From: a virus | Direction: 5' to 3' (one strand) | Length of the DNA: 64,000 bases | Virus record (IMG/VR): IMGVR_UViG_3300048904_000261 | In this document: one piece after another, positions 1-52,795 of the stretch | How positions within the stretch are numbered: the stretch's first letter is position 1 | Layout of the letters: each line of letters opens with the position of its first letter | Notes under the pieces: model-generated | What the model was told of the DNA's origin: nothing | Seen by the model: the letters and a program-made list of their open reading frames with translations, nothing else | Database searches by the model: none | Position numbers and translations under genes: made by a program

Positions 1-1172
1 ACCGATCGCCGCGCGGCAGCCAGGATCCTTTCGGAATGTTCCTTGGCGCGTTGCTGATCGCTGGCGTACTGGGCTGCCACGTCCGCCGCGGCCGGCGGAG
101 GCGGCGTGGTCGCCGTCGTTGCCGGCGTCCTCGCTTTGCCACCGATCGCCGATGCCGCGAGACTGAGGATGGCGCCCGAGATCGCGCCGATCGAAGCATC
201 CTCCGCGATGCTCGAGAAAAGTTTCCGGTCAGGTTCGTACTTGGCCAGCTTGGAAGCGATGACGTCGCCGGCAACTCCCTGGAAAGAATTCTGGATCGCT
301 TCTTCCAAACTCTCCACCCCCGCGTGGAGTAGGCTTTCCTTCAGCGTGCCTCCGCTCATCTCGTCGAGACGGTTAAGCATCTTGGCCAGTGGTACCGCTT
401 CGGTCATGCCGACCGGCAGGTTCAGGACATAGGCCAACATCCGATCGTGTTCGTTCGCCCCGGCCTTGCGCGCCTCCTCGTACCCCTGCTGCGCCTGGGA
501 GAGCGCGCCCAGGCCAGCGACATTCCCGTAGGAGAGACGGGTCGCCGCCGATTTCATTGCTTCCTGCCCGATCTTCAGCGCGGCTTCACGCGCAATTCCT
601 CCAGTCACCGCCCGCTCGAATGCCCGCGTCCCGATCGCCTGCACCAGCCCCCTCTCCGCCAGGCCGGCGGCACCGCCTCCGACGATGAACGCCGCGCCCG
701 ATGCCACCGCCGCCGGTAGCTTCGTGGCAAAGAAGCTTTTCTCGAGACCTGGGACTTCTTCCGGCGCGATCGCTTCGCCGGCGCGGGTCAGTGCGGTCTC
801 CGTTCCGCCGGGCTCGGTCTCGAAACGCATCGGCACGTATTCCGCATCGGGCACTGAGTAGGTACCGGCAATGCGCGCTGCGCTGCCGACTGCTTCGGGT
901 ATCGCGCCCAGCGTTCTGCTGAACCCGCGCACACCGCTGCCAAAGAATTGTTTCCCGTACTCGCCGATGGTTGGCGGGTAAGGCGTGATTTCCAGTGGTG
1001 CGTTCGGTTGGGGCTGCGCCCGCTTGGTCAGCGTTTGAAGGTCGGAGGCAAAGTCCGGAAAGCGGGTCTTGTAATCGGGGTAATTCGTGTCGATCGATTC
1101 CAGCAATTCAGCATCCGTGCGATCGTCGTTCGGATATTGTTTGCGGAAAGCCTCAATGACACGGTTGGCCAT
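1..1172 (-). CDS. Virion internal/ejection-type protein, N-terminal part; gene continues beyond the left window edge
   Basis: Absent from the ORF track because no stop lies in the window. ATG at 1172-1170 (rc) opens a frame that stays open to base 1 (MANRVIEAFRKQYPNDDRTDAELLESID...AAQYASDQQRAKEHSERILAAARR). Ala/Gly-rich. Last gene of the late chain. Confidence 0.6.
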   Translation of the reverse strand, partial: MANRVIEAFRKQYPNDDRTDAELLESIDTNYPDYKTRFPDFASDLQTLTKRAQPQPNAPLEITPYPPTIGEYGKQFFGSGVRGFSRTLGAIPEAVGSAARIAGTYSVPDAEYVPMRFETEPGGTETALTRAGEAIAPEEVPGLEKSFFATKLPAAVASGAAFIVGGGAAGLAERGLVQAIGTRAFERAVTGGIAREAALKIGQEAMKSAATRLSYGNVAGLGALSQAQQGYEEARKAGANEHDRMLAYVLNLPVGMTEAVPLAKMLNRLDEMSGGTLKESLLHAGVESLEEAIQNSFQGVAGDVIASKLAKYEPDRKLFSSIAEDASIGAISGAILSLAASAIGGKARTPATTATTPPPPAAADVAAQYASDQQRAKEHSERILAAARRS

Positions 1173-2957: not shown

Positions 2958-4031
2958 TCAGTATCCAAGGTCTGCGCCGACGAAGGCCGCATCGCCGGCT
3001 GCTGTGCCCAGGCCAGCCCCGTAATCAATGGTGTCCGCGTACCCATTGTAAGGCGTGTAACCGGGGTAACCTGCTGCGCTTCCACCGCCGTAACCGTACT
3101 GCTGTGCTGCGGGATAACCAGAACGCCAGCCGCCATTGTTGCCGTACTGGTTGGCGAGATTCCGGTTCAGGAAATATCTGCCGGCTGTGTTGCCAGCTTC
3201 CGCCCCCGCGTTGGCCAGGATCTGTCCGATGCTGGCATTGGGTTGGATCCACGGCGCCATCTCGGGCCGGCCGGGTTGCCCCACGCCGATCCTGAAATAA
3301 TCCAGCGGCGACAATTCGCCGCGGGAGATTGCCCCGGCCACGTCCGCCGGAAGAGTTTCGAACCGGATCGCCTGCGCGGCCAGTGCGCCCGCCAGCTCGG
3401 GGCTTTGCAGTTCCAGCTTCAGGATCTCGTCTCGGATCGATTGCCGTTCCTGGGCGTTCTGCAGCTCGGCCGTCGCCCTTGCCGCGCCCGCTGCCTGGTT
3501 CCCCTCGATGGACGTGCGGAAGGCAAGATTCTCCGCCGCGCTGCCGCTCCCCACAAACCCTTTGCCAGCATTCGACGCGCTGATGGCGTTGAGCCGGTCC
3601 CTGATTCCCTTGTAGATCCCGGTCGCCGTCGTGTCCGCCAGCGCAGTGCGCGCCTGGAACGTAGGCTCGGCATTGGCGAGCCGCCGCCGTTCCAGATCTC
3701 CGCTGAAAATTCCGTAGGCAGCCTTGGTGCCTTCATCCAGGAGCGGTTTGTACCGCCCGGCGACGGCGGCTCCTCGCGCAACCACGTCCGCCGGATTGCC
3801 GTAGTAATCCTTGAGCGCTCTGGAAACGTCGGCGGAGTCGGTCGCGAATTCCTTTTCGGTACCGCCAAGGTATTCAGGAAGGATGGCGTGGCCGGTTGAC
3901 CCGCGGGACTGGGCGAATTGATCCGCCAGAAGCTGGTTGTATTCCCTGGCCTGCTGGGCCTGGGCCTGGGTAGCCCGGTTCTGAGCCTTTGACGAAAGGA
4001 TCGCGCCAACCGTTCCACTCACGATGCTCAT
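2958..4031 (-). CDS. Virion-associated protein with Gly/Tyr-rich C-terminus (internal virion protein candidate)
   Basis: 357-aa ORF. Start overlaps the stop of the upstream GNAT gene (ATGA at 4031-4028). C-terminus is GGWRSGYPAAQQYGYGGGSAAGYPGYTPYNGY. Confidence 0.5.
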   Translation of the reverse strand: MSIVSGTVGAILSSKAQNRATQAQAQQAREYNQLLADQFAQSRGSTGHAILPEYLGGTEKEFATDSADVSRALKDYYGNPADVVARGAAVAGRYKPLLDEGTKAAYGIFSGDLERRRLANAEPTFQARTALADTTATGIYKGIRDRLNAISASNAGKGFVGSGSAAENLAFRTSIEGNQAAGAARATAELQNAQERQSIRDEILKLELQSPELAGALAAQAIRFETLPADVAGAISRGELSPLDYFRIGVGQPGRPEMAPWIQPNASIGQILANAGAEAGNTAGRYFLNRNLANQYGNNGGWRSGYPAAQQYGYGGGSAAGYPGYTPYNGYADTIDYGAGLGTAAGDAAFVGADLGY

Positions 4032-4477
4032 AGGGCTTTCAGGTAATTGCTTTCGATGAGGCGATACCCCAGCCGAAGGTAAAGCTGACCGAGTGCTTCT
4101 GGTTGCAATTTTTGCAGGTGAATCATGCAGATAAAATCCGCCCCGCGTTCAGCCGCCCATGCTTCGAATGCTCGAAGGAGTTTGATCCCATGCCCTCGAT
4201 GATCGGGCAAGACGTACCAGAAAAGTTCAATCGCGCTGACTGTTTCATTGAACGGACTTGGGGCGAGAACGGCACCGAGCGCCCCGGTGATGACCTTCTT
4301 ATCCCCTTGAAGCTCGAATGAGGCAAGCACCATTCCGCGGCCGGATTCGATCAGGTCGGTGAACGTGGTCAGGAATACCGTGGCATCAAACCCGCCGGGC
4401 ATCTTCCCCTCCTCGAAGAAAAGCCGGCCGCCCTCAATACACAAGTGGAGCTGTTCTGGCTTTAAGCGCTCGATCAT
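4028..4477 (-). CDS. GNAT-family N-acetyltransferase
   Basis: 149 aa. Acetyl-CoA motif A-like VLPDHRGHGIKLLRAFEAWAAERGADFI (R-x-x-G-x-G/A) at the expected position. Confidence 0.7.
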   Translation of the reverse strand: MIERLKPEQLHLCIEGGRLFFEEGKMPGGFDATVFLTTFTDLIESGRGMVLASFELQGDKKVITGALGAVLAPSPFNETVSAIELFWYVLPDHRGHGIKLLRAFEAWAAERGADFICMIHLQKLQPEALGQLYLRLGYRLIESNYLKAL

Positions 4478-4946
4478 GTTCCTCGCTCAACGGTGGGCCG
4501 ATCCAATTTGTTTCAACGCTTTTCGGAGTCCCTTGCAGCCAGTGCTGAATGGACAGGAACGCGCCGCCGGTCTCTCCGAAGGTTGCACCGTGCAGCATTC
4601 CCGGGATGACGCGAAGGGCTCTGCCACGATGAGACGATAGGTTGTCCGAAGTCTTTACCACACTCCCGCGTTCCCACGCGTCCTTGCCGTCCAGCCGGAA
4701 ATAAATCTCGCCGGTCAGGTAAACGAGGATCGTGTCCACGTCCGGATGCCGGTGATCGGGGATCTCCGCGAAGGATTTCCCCAGCCCGAGCTGCACCTGG
4801 TATTGGCCCTGCCGGTAGAGAACGAGTTGGGCGAAATCGCCGACGAACGCCGCGCCTTCAAAGGGGCACGACAGAATCATTGGCTGCTGGTGGAACCACG
4901 AAGCGAATTGCTCCAGGTAATCAAGTGGTCGGAATTGCTCGCTCAT
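4434..4946 (-). CDS. Cupin-fold protein
   Basis: ORF 4434..4979. The likely start is the internal ATG at 4946 (MSEQFRPLDY). Cupin motif 1 is PDHRHPDVDTILVYLTGE and motif 2 is RVIPGMLHGATF. Confidence 0.6.
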   Translation of the reverse strand: MSEQFRPLDYLEQFASWFHQQPMILSCPFEGAAFVGDFAQLVLYRQGQYQVQLGLGKSFAEIPDHRHPDVDTILVYLTGEIYFRLDGKDAWERGSVVKTSDNLSSHRGRALRVIPGMLHGATFGETGGAFLSIQHWLQGTPKSVETNWIGPPLSEEHDRALKARTAPLVY

Positions 4947-5697
4947 TGAAATACTTCTCCTGATGTCGGAAGGCGCCATTCAGCAGCTCCGGGTTCGCGA
5001 AGACGGCGCGGTGCTTCTCGCTGATGCCTGGGATCGCCTCCTCTGCAAGATCGCTGTAGGTGCCAGCGTGAAGGTGATCGAAGGCGGCATTCTGTTGGTC
5101 GTTGAACTTCTGTCCGCCGATGCAGTGATAAAGCTGCGCGCACGTGTCGTAAAGATAATGGCGGACCAGCCCGCAGTTTTCCCTGTGTGAATGCAGGACC
5201 GGCGCGAAGTAAGAGATCGGAGTTTTGCATGGGTGTCTCTCGCTCAGCGCGTCGATCGTCCGGATCCCATTCCTGATCATCACCGGATTCATCCAGAGCA
5301 ATGACGTGTGCAGCCGGCCATGGGTGATCCTTCGGGTGAAAGCATCAACGAATTCGGGGATCCACCGTCCGGCAATCGGCGCGTCGAACGTCCAAGTCTC
5401 AACCGCATTGTGTAACACAATGTCCGTGTCGCAAATCCAGAATGGTTCCGCACCCACCCGAACCTTGGTTTCAATCCAGGTGTGGTGCTGCATGAATTCG
5501 TAAGGAAGGTACACCGACGCGTTGACCCGCTTCGCCGCCTCGTGAAGCTCGGTCCAATCGACGTTTTTGTTCGGGTTGCACCGGACCATGATCCTGGCGG
5601 TTGGGAACCCAACGCGGATGGTGTCGAAGACAAGCAGGGTTGCCGGCATCAGCTCCGGCTTCCTGCAGGTTGCAAGGATGTGGACTACGGTGCTCAC
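4921..5697 (-). CDS. Glycosyltransferase-like protein (GT-A-type DxD candidate)
   Basis: 258 aa. An N-terminal beta-alpha pattern is followed by WICDTDIVLH (DxD-like). Overlaps both neighbours. Contains an orphan junction-motif copy at 5407-5421. Confidence 0.4.
   Translation of the reverse strand: MSTVVHILATCRKPELMPATLLVFDTIRVGFPTARIMVRCNPNKNVDWTELHEAAKRVNASVYLPYEFMQHHTWIETKVRVGAEPFWICDTDIVLHNAVETWTFDAPIAGRWIPEFVDAFTRRITHGRLHTSLLWMNPVMIRNGIRTIDALSERHPCKTPISYFAPVLHSHRENCGLVRHYLYDTCAQLYHCIGGQKFNDQQNAAFDHLHAGTYSDLAEEAIPGISEKHRAVFANPELLNGAFRHQEKYFNERAIPTT
5407..5421. repeat. Junction-motif copy (perfect palindrome) inside the GT-like gene
   Basis: ATTGTGTAACACAAT followed by G. Identical to the copy at 48044. 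Encodes I-V-L-H-N on the minus strand. Confidence 0.8.
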
Positions 5698-6665
5698 TGC
5701 GACAGCTCGGTGATGGTCATGGTGCTGCTCAACACCCCACCGAACTTGGCGCCCACTGCGCTTTGATTGACGAAGACTGTCGGGGATCCGGATGGATTCG
5801 TCGAACCGAACCGGACCTTGTAGGTGCGCGCGGTCGTGCTGCCGGCGTCGATGATCGCCATGAGATTCGCTTCGTTGTCGAAGTTGGCCGGGATGCTCGT
5901 CATGGATGCGGCGATCGCGAACTGGTCCGAATCCACGAACAAGGCGATGACGAAGGATGTCCCCACGTCCGCCGCCGCCTGCATGAAGACTTCGATCAGC
6001 AGCTTGGATGTCGCCTTCTTTGGCGTGTAGGTGATGTCCAGGTCCGCGAACGCTTTCCCTTCGGTGTTCTCCGGTACCGTGTTGTCGTAAGGGATGATTG
6101 TCGCCGTGCTATCCAGGGTTACTGACGTCGCGCTTACGATATTCGATGGCGTCCCGGGATCCACTGTTGGGAACGTGGAGATGATCTGGAAGTTGGTGCC
6201 GTCGTAGGCCAGCAGGTGGATGCTGCCGGCGATGATCTCTCCGCCGATCAACGCTTCGCCTGTCATCTTCTTCACGTCCTTGGCGCCTTCGCTGTTCACG
6301 TCCAGGCTAACCGCTCCCGTGTTCGCGTTCGTGAATTTGACGATGCAGAAGAAGGTCGTCGCCGCGCCGTCGCCGTAATCGAAATTGCCGGTGGGATTGA
6401 ACGTCACCGTGTAGTTATCCACGCCGCTTGCCACCCCGTAGAAATTCGCAAACCAATCCAGCTTGGCCTGGGTCACCGCGCGGTCTTTGATGGAGGCTGT
6501 CCCAACCGAATCGTTCTTGAGCGTCCCATCCGCGTTGAAGACAATCTCGAAAAGCTTTGCCAACCCATCGGCGAAGTCGCGCAGCAGCTTTAGGTTGTCG
6601 TCGTGCTCTTCGCTGGTGAGCGGGGAACCCTTCGGTATTCTCAGGGTCAGAGGAGGAACTTGCAT
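5694..6665 (-). CDS. Tail fibre-like protein
   Basis: 323 aa. N-terminal PLTSEEHDDNLKLL, then SIKDRAVTQAKL and SLDVNSEGAKDVKK...LLAYDGTNFQI, patterns common in phage fibre proteins. GGAG lies 5 nt upstream of the ATG. Confidence 0.6.
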   Translation of the reverse strand: MQVPPLTLRIPKGSPLTSEEHDDNLKLLRDFADGLAKLFEIVFNADGTLKNDSVGTASIKDRAVTQAKLDWFANFYGVASGVDNYTVTFNPTGNFDYGDGAATTFFCIVKFTNANTGAVSLDVNSEGAKDVKKMTGEALIGGEIIAGSIHLLAYDGTNFQIISTFPTVDPGTPSNIVSATSVTLDSTATIIPYDNTVPENTEGKAFADLDITYTPKKATSKLLIEVFMQAAADVGTSFVIALFVDSDQFAIAASMTSIPANFDNEANLMAIIDAGSTTARTYKVRFGSTNPSGSPTVFVNQSAVGAKFGGVLSSTMTITELSQ

Positions 6666-6674
6666 GGCTCCGGA

Positions 6675-8285
6675 TTAGATACCTTCCCCGTTTTGTTGTC
6701 CAGCAGCCAGAACGCGCTTGATAGTCTTCAACAATTCCTCGATCGGGACTGGTTTCTTCAATACGGTCTCGCCTTCGAGTTCTTCAGGCAAGTCTGCTAT
6801 GCCTGATAAGAAGATGACCGGGAGATGGAACCCCTGCGCTCTGAGGTTCCGGACGATTTCCCGCCCGCACATGATCGGCATGAACAGGTCGGTGATCAGC
6901 AGGTCGATTTTTTCGCCCGTCCTAAAATACGCCAGCGCTTCGGGACCGTGGCCGGCGGTCATCGTCTTGAATCCACGCCCGTCCAGGTGCATCGCGATCG
7001 CCGTCCTGAACAGTTGCTCGTCGTCCACGAGAACGATTGTCTTCCCGGTGCCATCAACAATTTCCCGCGGCTGATCATCCTGCTTCGCATACAGCGGCAG
7101 ATAAACGCTGAAGGTTGTTCCGACGCCAGGCTCCGAGTTCACCGTGATGTCGCCGCCGTGGTCCTTCAGAATTTCGGAGACGATATGCAGACCGAGCCCA
7201 GTGCCATTCCCGCCCTTCTTGGTCGTGTAGAAGGGCTCAAAGACATGCGGCAAGATGCTCTGCGGAATACCCTGCCCGGTGTCGCGGACGGTGAACATGA
7301 CATACGGCTGGACCGAACTGCTGCCTTCCTTCGAGATCCGGATGTTCCTGGCGCCTAGGTGCAGATCGCCTCCGTTGGGCATGGCGTCCCGCGCGTTCAC
7401 GCACAGGTTTAGGAATACCTGGTAAAGCTGAGTCGTGTCACACTTCACGCTGCCGGTTTCCACGTCGGTTTGGCTGCTGATTTGCAGGTTTGTCGCGAAG
7501 CTTTTCTCGCGAATCGTGCGCCCGATTTCAGTCAGAAGATATTCGGCGGTGACAACCTTGTAGGGGGAACCTTCGGATCCCTTGGCGAAGGCCGTCATCT
7601 GCTTGACCATCTCTCCGCCGCGCATCGCATTTCCATGAATCAGGCTGATCAAATGCTCTGACTCCTCGACAAGCTCTAATCCTTTGACATTGAGTTCGAC
7701 GGTGATCAATTTAAGCAAGTCGGCAAACAGCCGGCGCAGCAGCTCGGCGCCGGCGGCGATGCCACCCAGCATGTTGTTCATGTCGTGAGCCACGCCAGCC
7801 AGGAGGAAACCCAACAGCTCGAGCCGCTGCGCCTTGATCTGTTTCTGGCGTTGCTCAATTTTCAGCCGCTCCTCCTCCTTTTGTTTCAACGCGTCTTGCC
7901 TGCGCATCCACGCCTTCTCCACCGCCGACACCAATCTGGCCGGCCGATCCTTCAAAATATAATCCGCGGCCCCGTACTGGCAGGCGACTGAAGCCGCCTG
8001 GTCATCTCCAAAACTGCCCGTCAGAATGATCACAGGAATTTCTGGATGCAGTTTTCTGATCGTCACCAGGGCTTCTTCCGCAGAAATCCCAGGCACTCTG
8101 CAATCCAGGAGGATGATGTCGATGTCGAGGTTTTCTCCCAGCATTTGGCGGAAACTGTCTCCCTGATTTGCATTGAAGAATTCGATCCCGTCGATGTTAT
8201 CCGCTCGAAAGTCTCGAAGCCGTCTCTTGAATTGTTCAATGTCCTCCTGATTGTCTTCCACGAACAATATTTTGAGGTGCTTCAT
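6675..8285 (-). CDS. Hybrid histidine kinase/response regulator (REC-HisKA-HATPase_c-REC), no TM or sensor domain
   Basis: 536 aa. REC1 has DIILLDCRVPG and ADYILKD. H-box is GVAHDMNNML. N-box is NLCVNARDAM, G1 is DTGQGI, F is FEPFYTTK and G2 is GTGLGLHIV. REC2 has VLVDDE and DLLITDLFMP. The gene is visibly AT-richer than its neighbours. Confidence 0.9.
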   Translation of the reverse strand: MKHLKILFVEDNQEDIEQFKRRLRDFRADNIDGIEFFNANQGDSFRQMLGENLDIDIILLDCRVPGISAEEALVTIRKLHPEIPVIILTGSFGDDQAASVACQYGAADYILKDRPARLVSAVEKAWMRRQDALKQKEEERLKIEQRQKQIKAQRLELLGFLLAGVAHDMNNMLGGIAAGAELLRRLFADLLKLITVELNVKGLELVEESEHLISLIHGNAMRGGEMVKQMTAFAKGSEGSPYKVVTAEYLLTEIGRTIREKSFATNLQISSQTDVETGSVKCDTTQLYQVFLNLCVNARDAMPNGGDLHLGARNIRISKEGSSSVQPYVMFTVRDTGQGIPQSILPHVFEPFYTTKKGGNGTGLGLHIVSEILKDHGGDITVNSEPGVGTTFSVYLPLYAKQDDQPREIVDGTGKTIVLVDDEQLFRTAIAMHLDGRGFKTMTAGHGPEALAYFRTGEKIDLLITDLFMPIMCGREIVRNLRAQGFHLPVIFLSGIADLPEELEGETVLKKPVPIEELLKTIKRVLAAGQQNGEGI

Positions 8286-8456
8286 TGTCCATTAGCGTGA
8301 CACCTTAACCGTGAGAAGCAACCGATTCCTTTGTGAAATGCCTGCTGGCACGCCTTCCGCTCACACACCAATGCCGGTCCTCATAGCCGGCGCGATTCAG
8401 TCTTGTTGCCTTCAACCATGGGGCGGTGAGCCTTGACAGCTTGCCGCCCTCCCGCC

Positions 8457-9422
8457 TCATCGCGAAGAAAAGAACAACTCATTCGAGTACCCTGTCACAT
8501 CGAAACTGTCCACCTGCCGCACGCGGAAGCGCCAGTCACGGTGCTTCTGAAGGTTGCTGGCCTTGTAGTGAATGGTGCCCGGTGTGACCGTTGCGATCTT
8601 CATGAAGGGCGCCAACTCCTTGGATTGCTCGACCTCGGTGCTCATGGCGAGCGTGCCATTCCAGGTCATGTCGATCCAGTTCCCGCCAACTTGAATCGCC
8701 TTGAGACCTGTCGGAGCCGGCGGGGTTGTCGGCGGCGGTGCTGCTGAAACAGTGAATGCAGTATTCGGCCCATCGGTGTAAACCCCATCAACTTTCACCG
8801 CGAGATGTGCCTGCCATATTCCGAACGGCGCGTCCGCGCGAACAGTCCACGAAGCAGTCACCATTGCAACGCCTCCGGGCGCCACTGTTTGAGGGATCAT
8901 GCCGGGGGTCCAATCGTCGAACGGGCCGGACGCATTCGACGCCCCAGGCTGCCGCGCCGTGAGCCAACCTTCATTGATCGTGACCGTTGCGCTCGTGCCG
9001 TTCGTTAGCTTGGCCGTTCCGGTGATTGACTGGCCACGCATGAGGTTGGTCGTCGTTAGGACCGGAGCCGACACGCTGAGCGATCCTGTCGGCGGCGGGA
9101 CGGCAATCGGCGGATTCGTCCAGGTCACGCTTGCCGGACTTTCGGCAGAGATCACCCCGTTCGAGATTTGCCGTGCCGTTAGCCACCAGCGAGTCATGAG
9201 GTTTAAGGGAATGTTCGAGACGGTTGTCTCCAGCGACGGCATCTGCACGTTCGTCACTACAATCGCCTGGTTGGTGCCGATCGCTTGATAGACCAGGTGC
9301 TCCGTTGCGCTCGGCGTTGGGTTCCAGGTCAGTTTCCAGTTTCCGGTCGTCTGAGCGTTTCCACTTGCGGTCAATAAGAGGGACACGATACCGACGCTTC
9401 TCAGCCATGTCCCCTGGCGCAA
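8457..9422 (-). CDS. Signal-peptide protein with two fibronectin type III-like domains; start uncertain
   Basis: ORF track 8457..9620. The upstream part looks non-coding. A TTG at 9422 would give MRQGTWLRSVGIVSLLLTASGNAQ (signal-peptide-like). FN3-like NWKLTWNPTPSATEHLVYQ and APTGLKAIQVGGNWIDMTWNG...FRVRQVDSFDVTGYSNE. Confidence 0.55.
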   Translation of the reverse strand: MRQGTWLRSVGIVSLLLTASGNAQTTGNWKLTWNPTPSATEHLVYQAIGTNQAIVVTNVQMPSLETTVSNIPLNLMTRWWLTARQISNGVISAESPASVTWTNPPIAVPPPTGSLSVSAPVLTTTNLMRGQSITGTAKLTNGTSATVTINEGWLTARQPGASNASGPFDDWTPGMIPQTVAPGGVAMVTASWTVRADAPFGIWQAHLAVKVDGVYTDGPNTAFTVSAAPPPTTPPAPTGLKAIQVGGNWIDMTWNGTLAMSTEVEQSKELAPFMKIATVTPGTIHYKASNLQKHRDWRFRVRQVDSFDVTGYSNELFFSSR

Positions 9423-9761
9423 GCATGGCGACGAGGGGAACGAACTTCCCGAAGGATTCAACGTCACAGACCCTAAGCCGCATCTGGTCACTTCCGCCAG
9501 CGCGTGGCATCGCGCCGTCCAACGTGAAAAAGCGCACCGTGTTAAAGCCTTCGCTACCATCGTGGATAATTGCATAATGCGGTTTCCAGTTGTCAAAGTC
9601 CGGGACGAATAGATAAGCACCGGGTTTCACTAACGGTTTGGATCATGTCAGCAGTGTTTTCACGGCCTTCCAATCATCCAACGGCTGACGTTTACGAAAC
9701 CCGAGCCGAACCAAGAGCCAGTGAAAAGGACGGAACCGACGCCGAAAGCCAATGTGGTAGT

Positions 9762-10568
9762 TCATAGTCCCCATCTCCGAAAATACACCTGCATCCACCT
9801 TAGCTCAGTTTCGCTCAGGTTCCGGTTATACAAAAGGATTTCAAAAGTGTACCCGCTGAATCGGACATTGGCCGTTCCGCTGCCGTTGATGTTTCCGGCA
9901 GTTCCCAAGTAGGCAACGTCCATGTAGCTAGGGATCACGTGCGAGGACAGGCTGCCTTGCGACACGTTATTGCGGAACATAAATGGGTTGCCCGAATTTT
10001 CCATGGCGCACACTGCAATCACAGTTCCCTTGTCGCTGGCCAATCCCGTGAGGACAGAGTTGTGAGTCCCCGCCGCCGCGCGCGTCGTTAGTAACATCGT
10101 CGTATCCTGATCTGCGAAACCGCCTCCAGCCGCGCCGACGATTGACCCGCCTTGAAATTCTCCCGCAGTCGTGCTCGCCTTGATCACGGCAATAACGGTC
10201 CAGAAGTTTGTGGCTATATTCGTTGAGCTTAAATAGAGGGTGTTTTGTGTCGCGAACGAAGTAAGGTTGGTCCACAGCACTCCCGGCAATCCGTTGGCGA
10301 TTCCCGTTTTGAATGTCGGCCTTTGCGCCGCCGTGACGTTGGTAGCGATGAGGCCATACGCTTGGTCGATCCATTCCGTGCCGGTGTTCCCGATCCGCGT
10401 CCCGTCTGTGAGCGCACTGAGGCTGTCGGCCTTCCACCACTGAATCAGACCTTGAGCGTCGTAGGGTTGCGCACCGAATTCTCTCCTCCGCGTTACCGCC
10501 ACAGACATTTGGGCCGTGGCTTCTGCAATCGACAGCAAGCAAAGCAAAAGGGAAAACAATCTTACCAT
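9762..10568 (-). CDS. Signal-peptide protein with concanavalin A-like/LamG-type domain
   Basis: ORF 9762..10682. The likely start is ATG 10568 (MVRLFSLLLCLLSIAEATAQ). C-terminal RFSGYTFEILLYNRNLSETELRWMQVYF is typical of LamG-type lectin folds. Confidence 0.55.
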   Translation of the reverse strand: MVRLFSLLLCLLSIAEATAQMSVAVTRRREFGAQPYDAQGLIQWWKADSLSALTDGTRIGNTGTEWIDQAYGLIATNVTAAQRPTFKTGIANGLPGVLWTNLTSFATQNTLYLSSTNIATNFWTVIAVIKASTTAGEFQGGSIVGAAGGGFADQDTTMLLTTRAAAGTHNSVLTGLASDKGTVIAVCAMENSGNPFMFRNNVSQGSLSSHVIPSYMDVAYLGTAGNINGSGTANVRFSGYTFEILLYNRNLSETELRWMQVYFRRWGL

Positions 10569-11860
10569 ACAGAGGGAGCGGTTGAGCTTTCCTTCCATTG
10601 GACTCGGGCCTTGAGCAAGCGCACCGGCACGTTGGTCCACGTATCCGACGCGTTCGCGCCCTGCCGCGCGACGTTGAACCAAATTGAATCACCCGCTGCA
10701 GGAGAGCCGCCCACCGTGATTGCCGGGGTTACAAAGACTTGTTCCACCTGGCCCGCGGTTGCCAATCCGTTCGTCACAAAAACTTCCGTTCCAAAGACGG
10801 CGTTCGTCATCGCCTCGCCCGGTGCCAGCGAACCCGCCTTGGCGCCCCACACCAGGTTGGTGATGCCGGAGGAGTTTGTGGAATCACACACGACATATAG
10901 CTTCAATTTCACCGTGCCCACGTCCCACACGTCAGGGAAAGTGAGGGAAAATCTCGTGCTCTGCGTCACACCATCAGCGAAAGTCCAGGCATCGCCAAGC
11001 GTGTCATTGACCAGGTTCGTGTAGGTTCCAACAACTGCGGGGGTTGGTCCGGCGTACATTGCGCCGGCCTCGAAGGCTTGATCCCGGTAGATGCCGGTGT
11101 AGGGGGCAGAAAGCGTTAGAGTCGCCGGATCCCATGCGAGGCCAGTGCCGTAATTCGCGTTCGTAACAAGCCCCGTCGAAGTCGTCGCCAGGAGATTTGT
11201 CTTCACCGCCTGGATAGCAATGGAGTTGGTGACGATCAGCGTGTTGTGGTTGCCGTTGACGGTGTAAAGATTACTGACTGTCAGGTTGTTCTGGACCGTC
11301 ACGTTGGACACCGTGATGTTGGAGACCGTAACATTGGTCACCGTGATGTTCGAGACGACGAGGTTGTTGGCGATATTTACGTTGGTAACGGTGATGTTAG
11401 AGACCACCAAATTGTTGGCGATGTTAACATTGGTCACGAGGATGTTGGAGACCGTCAGGTTGTTTACAACGGTCAGATTCGTGGTCACGAAATTGTTGAC
11501 GTTGATGGTCTGCGTGATGTTTGTCGAGAACCCCAAACCGCCCGAACCGTTGTTGGTGAGAATTCCCTCCGCATTGGGAATGCTCCCAAGGGTCGTGCTC
11601 GAAAGCCATCTGGTGACTGCGTTCGCGGTGCCTCCGGCCACATTCGTCACAGTGCCGCTGGAAACTGCGCCATTGGTCCACTTCTGCAATGAGGAATTAT
11701 ACACGAGCCCATCGCCATTGGCCGGCGGCTTGGCCGTCCTGACGTCCTGAAGATCGCCGATCCTGATTTGTGACGCCGGCTGAGCGAATGCCGTCCAAAT
11801 ACACATGCCGGCGAATACAACCAAGCCGAATAGGCCGAAAGCCTGCAGGAGCTTTTTCAT
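10562..11860 (-). CDS. Tail fibre-like protein with N-terminal signal-peptide-like segment and pentapeptide-periodic N-x-T/V repeats
   Basis: 432 aa. N-terminus is MKKLLQAFGLFGLVVFAGMCIWTAFAQ. Fibre-type motif IGDLQDVRTAKPPANGDGLVYNSSLQKWTNG. Repeat block NLTVSNILVTNVNIANNLVVSNITVTNVNIANNLVVSNITVTNVTVSNITVSNVTVQNNLTVSN. Confidence 0.6.
   Translation of the reverse strand: MKKLLQAFGLFGLVVFAGMCIWTAFAQPASQIRIGDLQDVRTAKPPANGDGLVYNSSLQKWTNGAVSSGTVTNVAGGTANAVTRWLSSTTLGSIPNAEGILTNNGSGGLGFSTNITQTINVNNFVTTNLTVVNNLTVSNILVTNVNIANNLVVSNITVTNVNIANNLVVSNITVTNVTVSNITVSNVTVQNNLTVSNLYTVNGNHNTLIVTNSIAIQAVKTNLLATTSTGLVTNANYGTGLAWDPATLTLSAPYTGIYRDQAFEAGAMYAGPTPAVVGTYTNLVNDTLGDAWTFADGVTQSTRFSLTFPDVWDVGTVKLKLYVVCDSTNSSGITNLVWGAKAGSLAPGEAMTNAVFGTEVFVTNGLATAGQVEQVFVTPAITVGGSPAAGDSIWFNVARQGANASDTWTNVPVRLLKARVQWKESSTAPSVW
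11341..11436 (-). repeat. 48-bp tandem duplication within a wider 15-nt periodic block (about 11262-11500)
   Basis: Units 11341-11388 and 11389-11436 differ at 10 of 48 positions yet both encode VTNVNIANNLVVSNIT. The flanks continue a 5-aa period (N-[ILV]-[TV]-V-[ST]). Confidence 0.8.
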
Positions 11861-22230: not shown

Positions 22231-23811
22231 CTATGCCCGGGCGGGCAACCCAAGTATTTGCAGCTCAGAGTTTGACATGACGTGCTGCTGCCCAACGCTG
22301 CCAGCTCCCTGGCCTGGGGCCGCGCTCACCCCGGCGCGCGGGGATCCAACGGGCTCCGGAGGAGGCGTTGCTGCGCCTGGCGTGGGCGGCGGATTTGCAG
22401 CACCGGGAACCGGCGGAGGGGGAGTCGCGGGGGGCGGCTTGATGTAGCCGGCCTTCGTAAGGCGTTCGCGTTCGGCTTTTACCAGCGCGTCGATGTGGTC
22501 GCGCGTGTTGCGCTCCATCATGGCCAGGATGTCTTCCTGGGAGAACGTCCAGTGCTTCGCGGCCTCTGCGCGGTTATTCATCCAAAGCTCGTTGAACTTT
22601 CCTCGCGGAAGGAAACTCTGCGCGGTGCCATCCTCCCCGTTTCGAAATCGCTTGTCCCCGCCATGGGCTGCAAAAGTTTCACCAGCCCTGCGGATGAAAC
22701 GAATAACCCACTCCTGATCAGCATTCTGCGGGTTGTAGTCTTTGACGCCGTTTTCCATGGCCAGGAATTCAGCCGCGGCGCGTTCGCCGTGCCCATAGGC
22801 TTTGACCACGATCGGGACGAAGAGCGGATCGGCTTCAGTCGCTTTCTCGATGCCATTGGTTTCAATCGCCTTGGCGATCTCTGCGATCGGCGAGGCGGGA
22901 TCGGACGCCATCAGCTTGCCAACATTGGATTGGAAGGCGCCCAGGCGCCCTTCAATGATCGGGCGTTTCTCCATCAGATCCTGGCGCTTTTGGATCTCCT
23001 CGGTTTGCTTCGTAAACTTTTCGGTGACCTTTTGGGTGGTCGATTCCTCCACCTGGGCGATCAACCGATCGGTCTTGAGCTTATCCCACGCGGCTGGCGC
23101 GATCTCGGGACGCGCGCCTTGCACGAAAGTCTGGAACGCTTCGTCGTCATCGTCGAAGCTGCGGTTCGGATCCTTCTGCCGCTCGGTATTGACGTACTGA
23201 TCGACGGCCTTGTAAAAGTTCAGGAACTTTCCGGACAGCCCCTTGTATTCATCGCCTTTGCCTTCCGCCCACTTCGCCAGTTCGTAGGCTTCCTTCTCCG
23301 GCTGGAGCATCGTCGCGATGAACGGATCCTCGACCGGGGCGGCGGGTGCTGGAGCCGCCGGAGCGGCCGGCTGTGGACTTTCGCCAATTACCTTGCGCAG
23401 AACTTCCTCGACGACCGACGCAATAGGCTTCTCCCGTCGCACAGTGACCCCTGGCGGCGGCGTTGCTGGTGCTCCTGGTGTTCCAGGGGCGGGCGGGGCG
23501 CCTGGAGGCGTCCCCGGGGTTCCTGGCGGCGATGGCGGTGCTGTTGACGGCGTTACTGCCGCGCCGCCAGGGGTTCCCGGAGGCTGCCCTGGTGGGGGCG
23601 GGGTGGTTGCTCCCGGAGCCGGGGCAGCCGGCGAAGGCGGCGGAGGAGCTGCAACGACAACCCCGAGATCTTCGAAGATGGATTTTAGCTGCGGATCATC
23701 CGCGCCCTTTTCAACCGGAGGCGGAGTCGGCGGTACCGCTGGAGCGGCGGCGGGCGGGGGTGTCGTTGCTGCTGCTGGAGGTGCGGCCGGAGGTGCTGCT
23801 GCTGCGTTCAT
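22231..23811 (-). CDS. Scaffolding-like protein (Pro/Ala-rich termini, charged helical centre)
   Basis: 526 aa. Lies between the portal block and the capsid gene. Termini are PPAAPPAAATTPPPAAAP and PPPATPPPPVPGAANPPPTPGAATPPPEP. The centre is rich in E, K and Q. Confidence 0.5.
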   Translation of the reverse strand: MNAAAAPPAAPPAAATTPPPAAAPAVPPTPPPVEKGADDPQLKSIFEDLGVVVAAPPPPSPAAPAPGATTPPPPGQPPGTPGGAAVTPSTAPPSPPGTPGTPPGAPPAPGTPGAPATPPPGVTVRREKPIASVVEEVLRKVIGESPQPAAPAAPAPAAPVEDPFIATMLQPEKEAYELAKWAEGKGDEYKGLSGKFLNFYKAVDQYVNTERQKDPNRSFDDDDEAFQTFVQGARPEIAPAAWDKLKTDRLIAQVEESTTQKVTEKFTKQTEEIQKRQDLMEKRPIIEGRLGAFQSNVGKLMASDPASPIAEIAKAIETNGIEKATEADPLFVPIVVKAYGHGERAAAEFLAMENGVKDYNPQNADQEWVIRFIRRAGETFAAHGGDKRFRNGEDGTAQSFLPRGKFNELWMNNRAEAAKHWTFSQEDILAMMERNTRDHIDALVKAERERLTKAGYIKPPPATPPPPVPGAANPPPTPGAATPPPEPVGSPRAGVSAAPGQGAGSVGQQHVMSNSELQILGLPARA

Positions 23812-24086
23812 GTGAGTTTTCTTCCTCCGTGTTCGTCGTTATCGATGATGACGCCGGGAACGTAGGTAATGGCCTCCGCGATCGCGTAGCTGCCATCGGG
23901 ATTACGTTGCTGGGTTGTCACCTGGACGATCGCCCCACCGCCAACCGACATTGCCTTCGTCGATTTCATCCAGCCTTCAGTCTGGCTGGAAGCTTTGCAA
24001 AGAAGTTGCCACGCGTCTCCGTTGCCGAAGACTTTCAAGTCCGGAACATTCGCCTTCGCTCCGGATACGTCCGTCAGAGTTTTCAT
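23808..24086 (-). CDS. Hypothetical late protein
   Basis: 92-aa ORF with ATGA overlaps on both sides. Confidence 0.55.
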   Translation of the reverse strand: MKTLTDVSGAKANVPDLKVFGNGDAWQLLCKASSQTEGWMKSTKAMSVGGGAIVQVTTQQRNPDGSYAIAEAITYVPGVIIDNDEHGGRKLT

Positions 24087-29846: not shown

Positions 29847-31247
29847 CTAATCATTGTGCGGCAGGTTGGGTTGGTCTGGCAAGTCATCGGCGGAAACTTT
29901 CGCCGCCGATTCGAAGCGCGTGTAACCGCGGAGGAAGGTCAGACGAACCTCCGGATAGGTAGGGCCGTTGCGTTGTTTGGCGATTAACAAATTCACCGCG
30001 GTTACTTCCGCGTTGTCCACTTCTTCGTCGTCATCGGCCTTCGGTTTGTAGAGCAGGCCGACAAAATCCGCGTCCTGTTCAATCGCGCCGGACTCGCGAA
30101 GGTCCGACATGCGCGGCCTTCGTTTCCCGTCGCGTTCCACGTCGCGGTTCAACTGGGATAGCACGATCACAGGGATAGCCAACTCCTTTGCCAGTGATTT
30201 TATCCCGCTGGAAATGTCGGCGATCTCCTGCTGGCGATTGTCCGCCTTCCGGTTGCTGGAATGCAGGAGTTGGAGGTAATCGATCACGAGAAGTTTGATC
30301 CCGAACTGCGCCGCCATGCGCCGCGCCTTGGTGCGAAGCTGGAAGATGGACAGAGACGACGAATCGTCGATGTGGATTGACGCCGATGAAAGTTTGCCGG
30401 CAGCTCCGGTGATCTTCGGGAAGTCCCGCTCGGCCAGGAATCCTTCACGGATGTTTCGAAGGTTCACACGCGCGCGCGAACAGAGCATCCGGAGCATCAG
30501 CGAATCAGCCGTCATTTCCAGGCTGAAAATTCCGACCGGAAGCTTCTGATCAACGGCGACGTGTTCGGCGATCTGAACGGCCAGGGCGGTTTTGCCCATC
30601 GACGGCCTCGCGGCAATGACGATCATTTCGCTGGTTTGAAAACCGAAGGTCATTTTGTCCAGATCGGGGAACCCGGTTGGTAACCCTGTCAGCAAACCCT
30701 GATGGGCGTGATAATGTTCGATGGTGGCGATCGCGCGCTGCGCCAGCTCCTTCGCTGTTGGAAGAACCTTGATGGTTGTCTGATCGCCCAGCTTCAGGAT
30801 CGATTGTTCGGCCTCGTCGATAATGTCCTCGACGTCCTCCTCGCCGGCCTCGTAGGCCGCGCCGACAATGCTGGTGGCAACCTGGATAATTTTTCGAAGG
30901 CGCGCCTTCTGTGACACCATTTTCACGTACCACGCGACGTTGCCTGGAGATGGCGCGGCATCCGGGAGCGCCGAAATGTAGGCAACCCCACCGACTTCAT
31001 CCAGTTTACGCATGGCCTTCAATCGTTCGCACAAGGTCAGCAGGTCGATCGGGACACGCTCATCGTGCATGGCCAGGCAATGGGCGAACAGGGTTCGGTG
31101 CCGAAGATCGTACATGGATTCGGGGCCGATCGTCCCACACTCGGGAATTGCCAGCCCGGGATCCAGGAGGATGCAGCCCAGGATGCCGCGCTCTGCATCG
31201 ATGCTGTGCGGGGGAAGCCGATCTGTGGTTGGTGTGCCGTTTTTCAT
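29847..31247 (-). CDS. dnaB: Replicative DNA helicase DnaB
   Basis: ORF 29847..31301. ATG 31247 overlaps the upstream stop (ATGA). N-terminal DAERGILGCILLDP. Walker A AARPSMGKTALA. Also LVIDYLQLL and SQLNRDVE. Confidence 0.9.
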   Translation of the reverse strand: MKNGTPTTDRLPPHSIDAERGILGCILLDPGLAIPECGTIGPESMYDLRHRTLFAHCLAMHDERVPIDLLTLCERLKAMRKLDEVGGVAYISALPDAAPSPGNVAWYVKMVSQKARLRKIIQVATSIVGAAYEAGEEDVEDIIDEAEQSILKLGDQTTIKVLPTAKELAQRAIATIEHYHAHQGLLTGLPTGFPDLDKMTFGFQTSEMIVIAARPSMGKTALAVQIAEHVAVDQKLPVGIFSLEMTADSLMLRMLCSRARVNLRNIREGFLAERDFPKITGAAGKLSSASIHIDDSSSLSIFQLRTKARRMAAQFGIKLLVIDYLQLLHSSNRKADNRQQEIADISSGIKSLAKELAIPVIVLSQLNRDVERDGKRRPRMSDLRESGAIEQDADFVGLLYKPKADDDEEVDNAEVTAVNLLIAKQRNGPTYPEVRLTFLRGYTRFESAAKVSADDLPDQPNLPHND

Positions 31248-31882
31248 CGCTTCGTCTCCGGTTTGAGTTGGTTCCAGCGAATGTTGGCGATCGCAGCCCA
31301 AGACTGCGTTCGCTTTTTACCCGGGCAACGGCGCGAATGGTCGAGATCCAGCAGAAGGCGCTTGAACTTTTCGGGACACTCCCTGTAACGCAGCCGCCAG
31401 TTGGCCCCATAGGCACTGCACTCGTCGGGAGTGAAATACCCAGTGAGTTCAAAGATCGCTTCCTCCTCCCCTTTCAAAGGTACCTTTGAATCTGTACCTT
31501 TAATACAGTCCTTATTAGGGTACCGAAAACCTGAGTCTCTGGTTTCCTTAATCTCTGAACTTTCAGAGATTAAGGTTTTATTGATCTCTGACAGGTCTGT
31601 GGATTCGTAGATAACCCAACCGCTTCCACCCGTCTTACCGCCACAAAACTTCAACTCTGCATATCCAACCGAGCGCAACTCTTTCAGAGCTGATCGGACA
31701 GCAGTAGGACCATCCGGCCCCATTTTGGAAAGCTGTTCAGAACTCACAACCCAGTTTGGAGGGCGACTGAGAAGATAGGCCAGAAGCCCCCTGGCTTTCC
31801 AACTCAGGCGCTCGTCTGCGAGCGCCTTGTTTTGAATCATCACGTATCCGTGATCGTGGCGGGCGACTTTAATTATCGGCAT
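31244..31882 (-). CDS. Replication initiator / helicase-loader-like winged-helix protein
   Basis: 212 aa. N-terminal YVMIQNKALADERLSWKARGLLAYLLSRPPNWVVSSEQLSKMGPDGPTAVRSALKELRSVGY. Directly upstream of dnaB. Confidence 0.5.
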   Translation of the reverse strand: MPIIKVARHDHGYVMIQNKALADERLSWKARGLLAYLLSRPPNWVVSSEQLSKMGPDGPTAVRSALKELRSVGYAELKFCGGKTGGSGWVIYESTDLSEINKTLISESSEIKETRDSGFRYPNKDCIKGTDSKVPLKGEEEAIFELTGYFTPDECSAYGANWRLRYRECPEKFKRLLLDLDHSRRCPGKKRTQSWAAIANIRWNQLKPETKR

Positions 31883-52598: not shown

Positions 52599-52795
52599 AG
52601 ACATCAACCATCATCACCGTCGAGTTTCTCCCGATGTTCAAACGCATCTGGATTACTCGCCGGCTGAAGAACGGGATCAACTTGTCCCGTCAATACCCGC
52701 TGCACAGCAGAAGCCTGACCCGCATCTTCAAGGTGGCAGGGCACTGGCGTTGGGTGCAACCGCACGTATCAACACCGAGATTGGAGAGACCATGA
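52586..52795 (+). CDS. Hypothetical basic small protein (weak)
   Basis: 69-aa ORF. Its stop overlaps the next ATG (ATGA). Confidence 0.35.
   Translation: MRIVKTSTIITVEFLPMFKRIWITRRLKNGINLSRQYPLHSRSLTRIFKVAGHWRWVQPHVSTPRLERP

Follow-up and report, generated by a model that had tools for sequence, protein, structure and literature searches.

A predicted LvrB-like hybrid histidine kinase conserved in an integrase-carrying phage lineage

Two-component signalling is treated as a cellular system. This report concerns a gene for a predicted soluble hybrid histidine kinase that lies on the minus strand among the structural genes of a phage, within a 64,000-nt stretch of viral DNA (IMG/VR record IMGVR_UViG_3300048904_000261; this whole stretch is called the window in the following). 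The encoded protein consists of an N-terminal receiver (REC1), a signalling helix that continues into the DHp domain with the phospho-acceptor histidine, the catalytic ATP-binding domain (CA) and a C-terminal receiver (REC2). In a first, sequence-only reading of the window, the gene had been taken for a "moron", a term that would imply a recent capture from a host. The analysis presented here points instead to a long-retained phage gene whose product resembles the Rec-controlled kinase LvrB. Related loci and proteins are cited by numbers with the prefixes L and P, respectively, and the coordinates of all features are collected in Table 1.

The best PDB match of the kinase by sequence is LvrB of pathogenic Leptospira (8vc9, E-value 9e-44, residues 3-399; further structures 9qqw and 9qr2), which is also the top Foldseek match of its predicted structure (E-value 1e-28). 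LvrB is the prototype of a Rec-controlled kinase: upon phosphorylation of the Rec domain, the signalling helices form a coiled coil and the CA domain is released for autophosphorylation (PMC13269768). Both proteins are soluble, lack a sensor domain and share the N-terminal receiver, the long signalling helix and the DHp-CA unit. LvrB ends after the CA domain and passes its phosphate to the separate regulator LvrC. The phage kinase, in contrast, adds a C-terminal receiver, which makes it a hybrid kinase. It further differs from LvrB in a DHp hairpin that is 19 residues longer, in being phage-encoded and in having no LvrA-like partner nearby. An assignment as LvrB orthologue was rejected, as NCBIfam NF047466 gives 183 bits, where its cut-off is 500, and the C-terminal receiver is extra.

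CckA of Caulobacter and Brucella (PDB 5idj, 5idm) is the best NCBIfam match (216 bits) and the second-best PDB sequence match. It belongs to the same AHDxNNxL H-box subfamily and shares the DHp-CA-REC core; for the CA domain, the target-normalised Foldseek TM-score against 5idm is 0.79-0.80. CckA, however, is membrane-anchored, carries PAS sensor domains and lacks an N-terminal receiver, whereas the phage kinase is soluble and has one. Orthology to CckA was likewise rejected (216 and 180 bits for NF046020 and NF046026 against an equivalog cut-off of 1000; no transmembrane segment and no PAS domain). The same four domains, the catalytic residues and a linker of heptad-stepped length are found in cellular REC-HK-REC kinases, to which the phage kinase is 33-37% identical over the full length. 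They include P0013 and P0045 from Verrucomicrobiota metagenome-assembled genomes as well as P0024 and P0108. The latter two adjoin a sensor kinase of CHASE3-PAS or CHASE8-HAMP layout together with a free-standing receiver, in clearly cellular surroundings, for example an ATP synthase operon. The phage copy, in contrast, stands alone and falls into a separate clade with 100% bootstrap support.

A phage-borne histidine kinase without cognate response regulator is also known from the Clostridioides difficile phage phiCDHM1, whose AgrC was proposed to interface with host signalling (PMC3901668). AgrC belongs to another kinase class, as a quorum-sensing receptor of the membrane, and is encoded together with agrB and agrD (PMC3901668), whereas the kinase described here is soluble and lineage-conserved. 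In PHROG, significant matches were obtained to three unannotated families (phrog_5982, 2e-74; phrog_20458, 2e-37; phrog_731, 1e-34), so kinase-like genes are already catalogued in viral sequence sets. The profiles of these families either comprise 829-1030 positions with extra N-terminal regions or cover a receiver only, and none represents a full REC-HK-REC protein from end to end or has been assigned a function. Given these families and AgrC, phage-borne kinases are not unprecedented. A phrase search of a paper library returned nothing on histidine kinases or two-component systems encoded by phages, prophages or viruses, and AgrC was the only clear precedent found. Beyond catalogue entries, phage-borne kinases are practically undescribed.

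The open reading frame of the kinase starts at its first in-frame start codon, the ATG at 8285, and ends with the stop codon at 6675-6677. In the alignment, the N-terminus lines up with the N-termini of all homologues. The domain searches confirm most of the REC-HisKA-HATPase-REC architecture that had been read from the sequence: Pfam reports two Response_reg domains (1.1e-30) and HATPase_c at residues 283-399 (7.6e-28; 97.6 bits against a cut-off of 26.4). HisKA stays below threshold (21.3 bits, cut-off 26.9), but the DHp domain is canonical in the AlphaFold2 (AF2) model. The weak HisKA score is probably due to the DHp hairpin, which is 19 residues longer than in cellular relatives; the distance from the histidine to the N box is 130 residues here and 111 there.

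All residues expected for phospho-chemistry are present. The H-box within the DHp domain reads AHDMNNML, and its phospho-acceptor H167 (7785-7787) is invariant across relatives. In the CA domain, N293, N297, D335, G337, G339, G361, G363 and G365 are invariant, and the F box is FEPFYTTK. The REC1 pocket comprises the acidic pair E10/D11, the phospho-acceptor D61 (8103-8105), T89 and K112, and the REC2 pocket D421/D422, the phospho-acceptor D466 (6888-6890), S494 and K511. In alignments with up to 40 relatives, both pockets and the catalytic residues are invariant or nearly so, and the claim of intact catalytic boxes and receiver aspartates and lysines thus stands. The same holds for the absence of membrane and sensor domains: no transmembrane segment was detected, the maximum 19-residue Kyte-Doolittle mean being 1.32, and Pfam and NCBIfam scans found no sensor domain. 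A GHKL-type CA domain with all four boxes and an H-box histidine within a DHp hairpin place the protein by sequence among the class I histidine kinases, and the intact aspartate pocket in a receiver C-terminal to the CA domain among the hybrid kinases. The open reading frame is real, and the encoded protein is predicted to be catalytically competent.

The AF2 monomer model was built on 33 sequences and has a mean pLDDT of 87. It places REC1 at residues 2-111, followed by a single helix (115-194) bearing H167, a turn (195-199), a second helix (200-234), the CA domain (243-398), a disordered linker (399-415) and REC2 (416-533). Residues 115-234 thus form a helix-turn-helix with a continuous first helix of 80 residues. 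The spacing between the receiver lysine and the H-box histidine (K112 to H167) is 55 residues, and the same value was counted for LvrB from the PDB-match alignment. Among REC-HK-REC relatives, 35 of 40 have a spacing of 41, 48, 55 or 62 residues. These are steps of whole heptads, as a rigid helical transmission element predicts. With a full receiver pocket directly in front of the DHp-CA unit and a continuous, heptad-constrained helix between them, sequence and model assign the kinase to the Rec-controlled type like LvrB, a point that was absent from the sequence-only reading.

The closest database relatives are P0002 and P0003 with 51% identity, followed by P0004-P0012 with 36-41%; all have the four-domain layout. 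P0003, P0011 and P0006 are encoded on phage-type contigs that share further genes with the window, namely the N-terminus of a giant protein (64%), an AAA ATPase (80% and 48%) and a gene for an FN3-like protein (33%). IMG/VR contains further full-length relatives with 31-41% identity on viral contigs, some of which also share a 432-residue protein (73%, C-terminus), the terminase (26%) and a 789-residue protein of the structural arm (28%). In a scan of cellular genomes with one genome per GTDB species, the identity did not exceed 39% over the kinase core and 34% over the full length.

A neighbour-joining tree was calculated from 345 core columns of 237 sequences with 100 bootstraps. P0001-P0012, L012-L017 and L026 form a 19-member clade with 100% bootstrap support. 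Neighbouring genes were examined for eight of these members, and all eight lie among phage-type genes. The sequence-only reading had proposed a phylogeny to see whether the nearest relatives are host genes; the nearest relatives form this phage clade. The related phage loci were retrieved by searching with the kinase itself, and within this scope every one of them carries it. A census of the lineage in IMG/VR with the 432-residue protein and the N-terminus of the giant protein as markers gave no match with single proteins, and with the alignment only one contig, which was already known. At 38-50% identity, the divergence of the kinase matches that of core genes from these genomes or stays below it; for L012, the kinase is 38% and the terminase 26% identical.

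Selection on the gene was estimated from dN/dS (nonsynonymous to synonymous substitution rates). Two phage copies compared with each other give a ratio of 0.087. All estimable values are below 0.2, with the REC2 segment saturated, and the CA domain has 0.088. A second pair, L016 and L017, was saturated at synonymous sites. These ratios indicate strong purifying selection. Taken together, the fully supported phage clade, a divergence that tracks that of the core genes and purifying selection argue for a long-retained phage gene rather than a recent capture.

No partner for the kinase was detected in the phage. Searches by hmmsearch with REC and HK profiles of the clade found no other such gene in the window and its continuations L140 and L001 (about 76.7 of 77.6 kb) or in the flanks of six relatives, and the precomputed Pfam lists for the genome stretches contain neither an Hpt domain nor a further receiver. 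Since no receiver, kinase or Hpt partner of phage origin was detected, input and output must be host components or partners too divergent to be recognised. The earlier view of a complete kinase in a virion-module operon with a host partner is compatible with this: the kinase is complete, soluble and located in the structural arm, and as it is an orphan, a host partner is the natural expectation. Measured against the cascades of the cellular homologues, the phage would carry only the downstream module, which a host sensor may charge and whose output may go to a host regulator.

The reading favoured here, with somewhat better than even confidence, is that of an active, orphan, Rec-controlled hybrid kinase that is a long-retained accessory gene of an integrase-carrying phage lineage and is wired into a host phosphorelay. 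How the phosphoryl group flows, which host proteins take part and what the phage gains are inferred as follows. D61 of REC1 would receive its phosphoryl group from a sensor kinase or phosphotransfer protein of the host or from a small phosphodonor. As in LvrB, phosphorylated REC1 would reorganise the long helix between receiver and DHp domain and free the ATP-binding domain, whereupon H167 would autophosphorylate. The phosphoryl group would then move from H167 to D466 of REC2 and go on to a host Hpt protein or response regulator. The kinase would act as an extra downstream module grafted onto a multi-kinase pathway of the host, which the phage may thereby read or override in lysogens or late in infection. 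Its gain may lie in lysogenic conversion, in a timing of induction or in reprogramming at a late stage of infection.

The intact receivers would also fit a protein that works in the opposite direction. As a phosphate sink or phosphatase, it would drain phosphoryl groups from a host kinase or Hpt protein through its two receivers or its DHp domain and silence a host pathway, for example a stress, envelope or abortive response. Receivers of hybrid kinases are known to act as sinks, the phage encodes no cognate output gene, and the symmetric state of LvrB has been proposed to be phosphatase-active (PMC13269768). A pure sink, however, would not need an intact CA domain, and the CA boxes are invariant across the clade at the low dN/dS given above. 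A sink function is considered unlikely.

Several points weigh against the favoured reading of a host-wired kinase. Kinase activity, Rec control and phosphotransfer are deduced from sequence and a monomer model. A simple count revealed no strong hydrophobic pattern at the heptad positions a and d of the linker, so that the heptad argument is one of length. The 19-residue DHp extension is limited to the window phage and its two closest relatives and could change which partners are chosen or how autophosphorylation proceeds. The phage may encode a small Hpt-like protein that is too divergent for Pfam; on the host side, no partner can be named. The tree is a neighbour-joining tree of 345 columns, and the neighbourhoods cover 8 of the 19 clade members. 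Outside the phage clade, deeper nodes have at most 37% support, so no cellular phylum can be named as donor. Finally, the kinase is probably co-transcribed with late structural genes, judging from their spacing, and this timing would be odd for a reprogramming of the host.

The position of the gene differs within the lineage. In the window, the kinase precedes the giant gene that closes the late arm, whereas in L006, L015 and L008 it lies after that gene, right at the end of the arm. It is followed by the integrase gene on the opposite strand in L006 and L008. The relative L141/L015 is syntenic with the window from a gene for a 106-residue protein to the giant gene; there, no kinase is found between the FN3-like gene and the fibre gene, and the kinase is located after the giant gene. 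The position has thus moved within the lineage, which the sequence-only reading did not report.

In most relatives examined, a small membrane-protein gene is encoded immediately upstream of the kinase, and L007, L016 and L026 share the order FN3-like gene, small membrane-protein gene, kinase. A gene for a lipoprotein-like protein of about 150 residues is usually found beside the kinase, mostly on the downstream side, and on the upstream side in L013 and L014. The boundaries of this cassette overlap or abut in L006 (9482-11973), L008 (4112-6485) and L007 (9672-11952). Neither the small transmembrane protein nor the lipoprotein matched Pfam or PHROG, and a role of either in spanin, holin or exclusion functions would be a guess. 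In the genome of the window, the lipoprotein gene lies beside the integrase without the kinase (L140 14766-15746, about 14.8-15.7 kb past window position 52609). Its product is 68% identical to that of L008, and the counterpart of the membrane-protein gene is a candidate with a match of only 26 residues. As the lipoprotein gene and this candidate are located by the integrase, the kinase has been separated from them in the window genome. The intergenic region in front of the kinase contains no detectable remnant of the small membrane-protein gene, and no homology of this region to the equivalent spacer of L141 was found.

A similar neighbourhood occurs outside the lineage. In L021 (9998-13637; IMGVR_UViG_3300005177_000001), which belongs to a different phage lineage, a REC-HK-REC gene with 33% identity to the kinase is located directly upstream of a baseplate-hub protein gene (Phage_BR0599 and phiJL001_Gp84_N). 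In L023 and L024, a REC-HK-REC gene directly precedes genes for proteins of about 1250 residues. Tail modules may be a place where kinases occur repeatedly.

Such locations raise the question of a virion-delivered effector, which would be made late together with the tail genes, packaged, injected and active at the start of the next infection. The kinase is encoded on the strand of the structural genes. Its distance of 9 nt from the start of the next gene, as given in the sequence-only reading, was confirmed; this spacer with its GGAG suggests co-transcription and re-initiation with the fibre-like gene downstream, and no terminator was found between the two. The hub-adjacent kinase gene of L021 and the giant protein of 3286 residues in the same arm, which hints at ejected internal proteins, are also in line with delivery. 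Against this, the kinase has no packaging signal and no homology to virion proteins, and in three relatives it is found at the late-arm end beside the integrase, a typical position of accessory or lysogenic-conversion genes. Delivery with the virion is regarded as improbable.

Base composition bears on the proposal of a recent passenger, a host kinase gene taken up by illegitimate recombination without any phage-specific role. The gene had been described as visibly poorer in GC than its neighbours. Its GC content of 55.4% is slightly low compared with 59.2 +/- 3.2% for the 39 genes of at least 150 codons (z -1.2, fourth lowest), but this is marginal, and both the GC content at third codon positions (GC3; z -0.37) and the synonymous codon fit to the remaining genome (z -0.07) are unremarkable. 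The check for foreign composition therefore did not support the moron view. The 171-nt gap upstream of the kinase and its differing positions among relatives could be expected of a passenger as well. They are outweighed by the typical codon usage, the monophyly of the phage clade, cellular matches of at most 39% identity over the core only, a divergence parallel to that of core phage genes and strong purifying selection. The passenger explanation is already largely refuted and very improbable.

The window derives from a complete, tailed-phage-type, integrase-carrying genome of about 77.6 kb. It encodes the large terminase subunit TerL (PHROG; Pfam Terminase_6N and Terminase_3) and a PHROG "virion structural protein", together with a DnaB helicase, a PD-(D/E)XK/DUF2800 exonuclease, an N6/N4 methyltransferase and several small phage-specific families. 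The integrase gene lies about 2.4 kb beyond the window end. On the minus strand, the genes run without interruption from the replication genes via the terminase to the giant gene. Major capsid and portal proteins were not identified among the genes of the genome, and a tRNA scan found none. Compared with isolated phages, the first 20 kb of the window have no near-identical match. By tblastn, the matches to the kinase that cover most of its length do not exceed 33% identity, and several of them lie on records titled as bacterial whole-genome contigs. Terminase and AAA ATPase have only distant matches (26-31%), which do not point to a host. PADLOC defence models yielded nothing meaningful and no link of the kinase to defence systems.

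Sixteen contigs encode the exact kinase protein; they come from JGI and from several Logan runs. In the five that were retrieved, no more than one mismatch to the window occurs across both kinase junctions. Near-identical sequence was obtained in many runs as contigs of about 77.6 kb, among them jgi 3300048909 Ga0496106_0000078 and logan SRR35925348_60159. Contigs of 77,746 and 77,590 bp have different breakpoints and place the window at incompatible offsets, with the window extending beyond the end of one of them, and the genome is therefore circular or circularly permuted. Mis-assembly at 6666-6675 or 8286-8456, which the sequence-only reading had named as a concern, is excluded, as independent assemblies from JGI and Logan show the same junctions. 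An assembly chimera or a cellular locus mistaken for a phage, for which nothing speaks beyond the unusual gene content, has a negligible probability in view of these permuted and near-identical contigs and of the terminase, DnaB, exonuclease, methyltransferase, integrase, structural and fibre-like proteins.

Table 1 Features of the kinase locus in the window
Feature	Position	Strand	Evidence
Hybrid histidine kinase gene (536 residues, predicted soluble; REC1 - signalling helix - DHp - CA - REC2)	6675..8285	-	Open reading frame, translation, Pfam/PHROG/NCBIfam matches, AF2 model
REC1, N-terminal receiver (residues 2-113)	7947..8282	-	Pfam Response_reg; aligns to LvrB receiver
Signalling helix and DHp (residues 114-236)	7578..7946	-	AF2 helices; heptad-stepped spacing; weak HisKA
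CA, catalytic ATP-binding domain (residues 243-399)	7089..7559	-	HATPase_c; N, G1, F and G2 boxes
REC2, C-terminal receiver (residues 415-533)	6687..7043	-	Pfam Response_reg, best stretch 417-522
Spacer of 9 nt between kinase stop and next gene; GGAG two bases before ATG	6666..6674	-	Sequence
Intergenic region of 171 nt upstream of kinase	8286..8456	-	Sequence
323-residue tail-fibre/receptor-binding-like protein, immediately downstream	5694..6665	-	PHROG, homologues, AF2, BFVD
367-residue protein, immediately upstream	8457..9560	-	By eye: signal-peptide-like N-terminus, FN3-like C-terminus
432-residue protein with tandem NNLxVSNxTVTNV-type repeats, two genes beyond the FN3-like gene	10562..11860	-	Fibre-like by eye only; no family match
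Giant gene, first ~390 codons, running off the window start	1..1172	-	Gene calls

The downstream neighbour of the kinase matches phrog_4900 "tail protein" weakly (9.2e-8). Its homologues have the N-terminal half in common, while their C-termini are swapped. The AF2 model (pLDDT 82) has 487 BFVD matches with E-values of at most 1e-3, including tail fibres of T7, lambda Stf, C1q-type and Pseudomonas phages. The FN3-like protein upstream matched no family in Pfam, PHROG or NCBIfam; homologues with 33-43% identity are encoded upstream of the kinase in L007, L016, L018, L019 and L026. The repeat protein beyond it is 73% identical to the product of an L012 gene over its C-terminal part (residues 265-450). 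The description of the kinase gene as located between tail-fibre genes is hence correct for the downstream side, whereas the adjoining upstream gene is FN3-like by eye and has no family match. "Embedded in a fibre cluster" is a fair statement, and "between two fibre genes" is only half shown.

Three consecutive proteins of the late arm (367, 278 and 432 residues; 8457-9560, 9762-10598 and 10562-11860, minus strand) have signal-peptide-like hydrophobic N-termini, which are unusual for virion proteins. Between the fibre-like gene and genes for proteins of 357 and 582 residues, three small open reading frames of 242, 170 and 149 codons are located (4028-5649, minus strand). The smallest has a weak match to Acetyltransf_7 (GNAT), and the 170- and 149-residue genes are kept at the same place in the relative L141.

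In the intergenic region upstream of the kinase, a short GC hairpin without a U-tract follows the stop codon of the upstream gene, and no Shine-Dalgarno sequence was seen before the kinase ATG. The region contains two sigma-70-like sites against 1.3 expected from shuffled sequences, for a consensus that may not be that of the host, and no terminator against five expected; its overall fold is unremarkable (z -0.63). A promoter, the mapping of which had been proposed for this region, is thus not reflected in a computational signal above chance, and the same holds for a terminator. The length of 171 nt was confirmed, but it is not the largest gap in this part of the genome, as gaps of 201, 163, 186 and 497 nt are found just upstream. 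The 497-nt gap is occupied by a called open reading frame of 165 codons on the opposite strand (23318-23815, plus) with a GC content of 69.9% and a GC3 of only 54%, whose codon fit is poorer than that of any other gene in the window. The call is probably spurious, and the gap may therefore be a regulatory region. The lowest GC content in the window (51.5%; GC3 55%) is that of a gene for a 212-residue protein adjoining the DnaB gene (31244-31882, minus strand), which also has a poor codon fit and is more "foreign" in composition than the kinase.

The giant gene comprises 3286 codons in full (it continues at L001 17114-21611) and at least 2987 in L006 (2-8965), and its N-terminus is 64-66% identical to those of L006 and L015. 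The orthologue in L006 has no match in Pfam or PHROG. Its size in a genome of about 78 kb recalls ejected internal or virion proteins. Beyond the window end, the giant gene is followed by a gene for a 179-residue Glyco_transf_29 (sialyltransferase-family) protein (L140 15727-16266, minus strand); in three relatives, this position at the end of the late arm is held by the kinase cassette. In two relatives, the stretch that separates the integrase from the early genes encodes an RVT_1 reverse transcriptase of about 290 residues and a CxxCxxCC protein (L006 13349-16794; L008 8941-12432); no RVT_1 is among the domains listed for the syntenic part of the window genome (L140).

A more specific version of the favoured, host-wired kinase is put forward tentatively. 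A temperate-type lineage would have kept, despite its deep divergence, only the downstream half of a bacterial kinase cascade as an eavesdropping device, with REC1 being charged by a host sensor kinase. If so, the phage would read an environmental or envelope signal perceived by its host and convert it into a phosphorelay output of its own, timing the decision between lysis and lysogeny or reprogramming the host. The placement in tail modules of unrelated phages, as in the window and L021, would then mean that expression or delivery is coupled to the virion genes. The kinase would be a phosphorylation-based counterpart of quorum-sensing eavesdropping by phages.

The kinase defines a conserved, phage-specific branch and is not a stray host gene, a warning not to write off kinase genes on viral contigs as contamination from the host. 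Its mechanism is predictable from the newly solved LvrB paradigm. The gene thus offers a concrete, testable case of a virus that may insert a module into a host phosphorelay, and a natural setting in which to study the acquisition of partners by orphan kinases.

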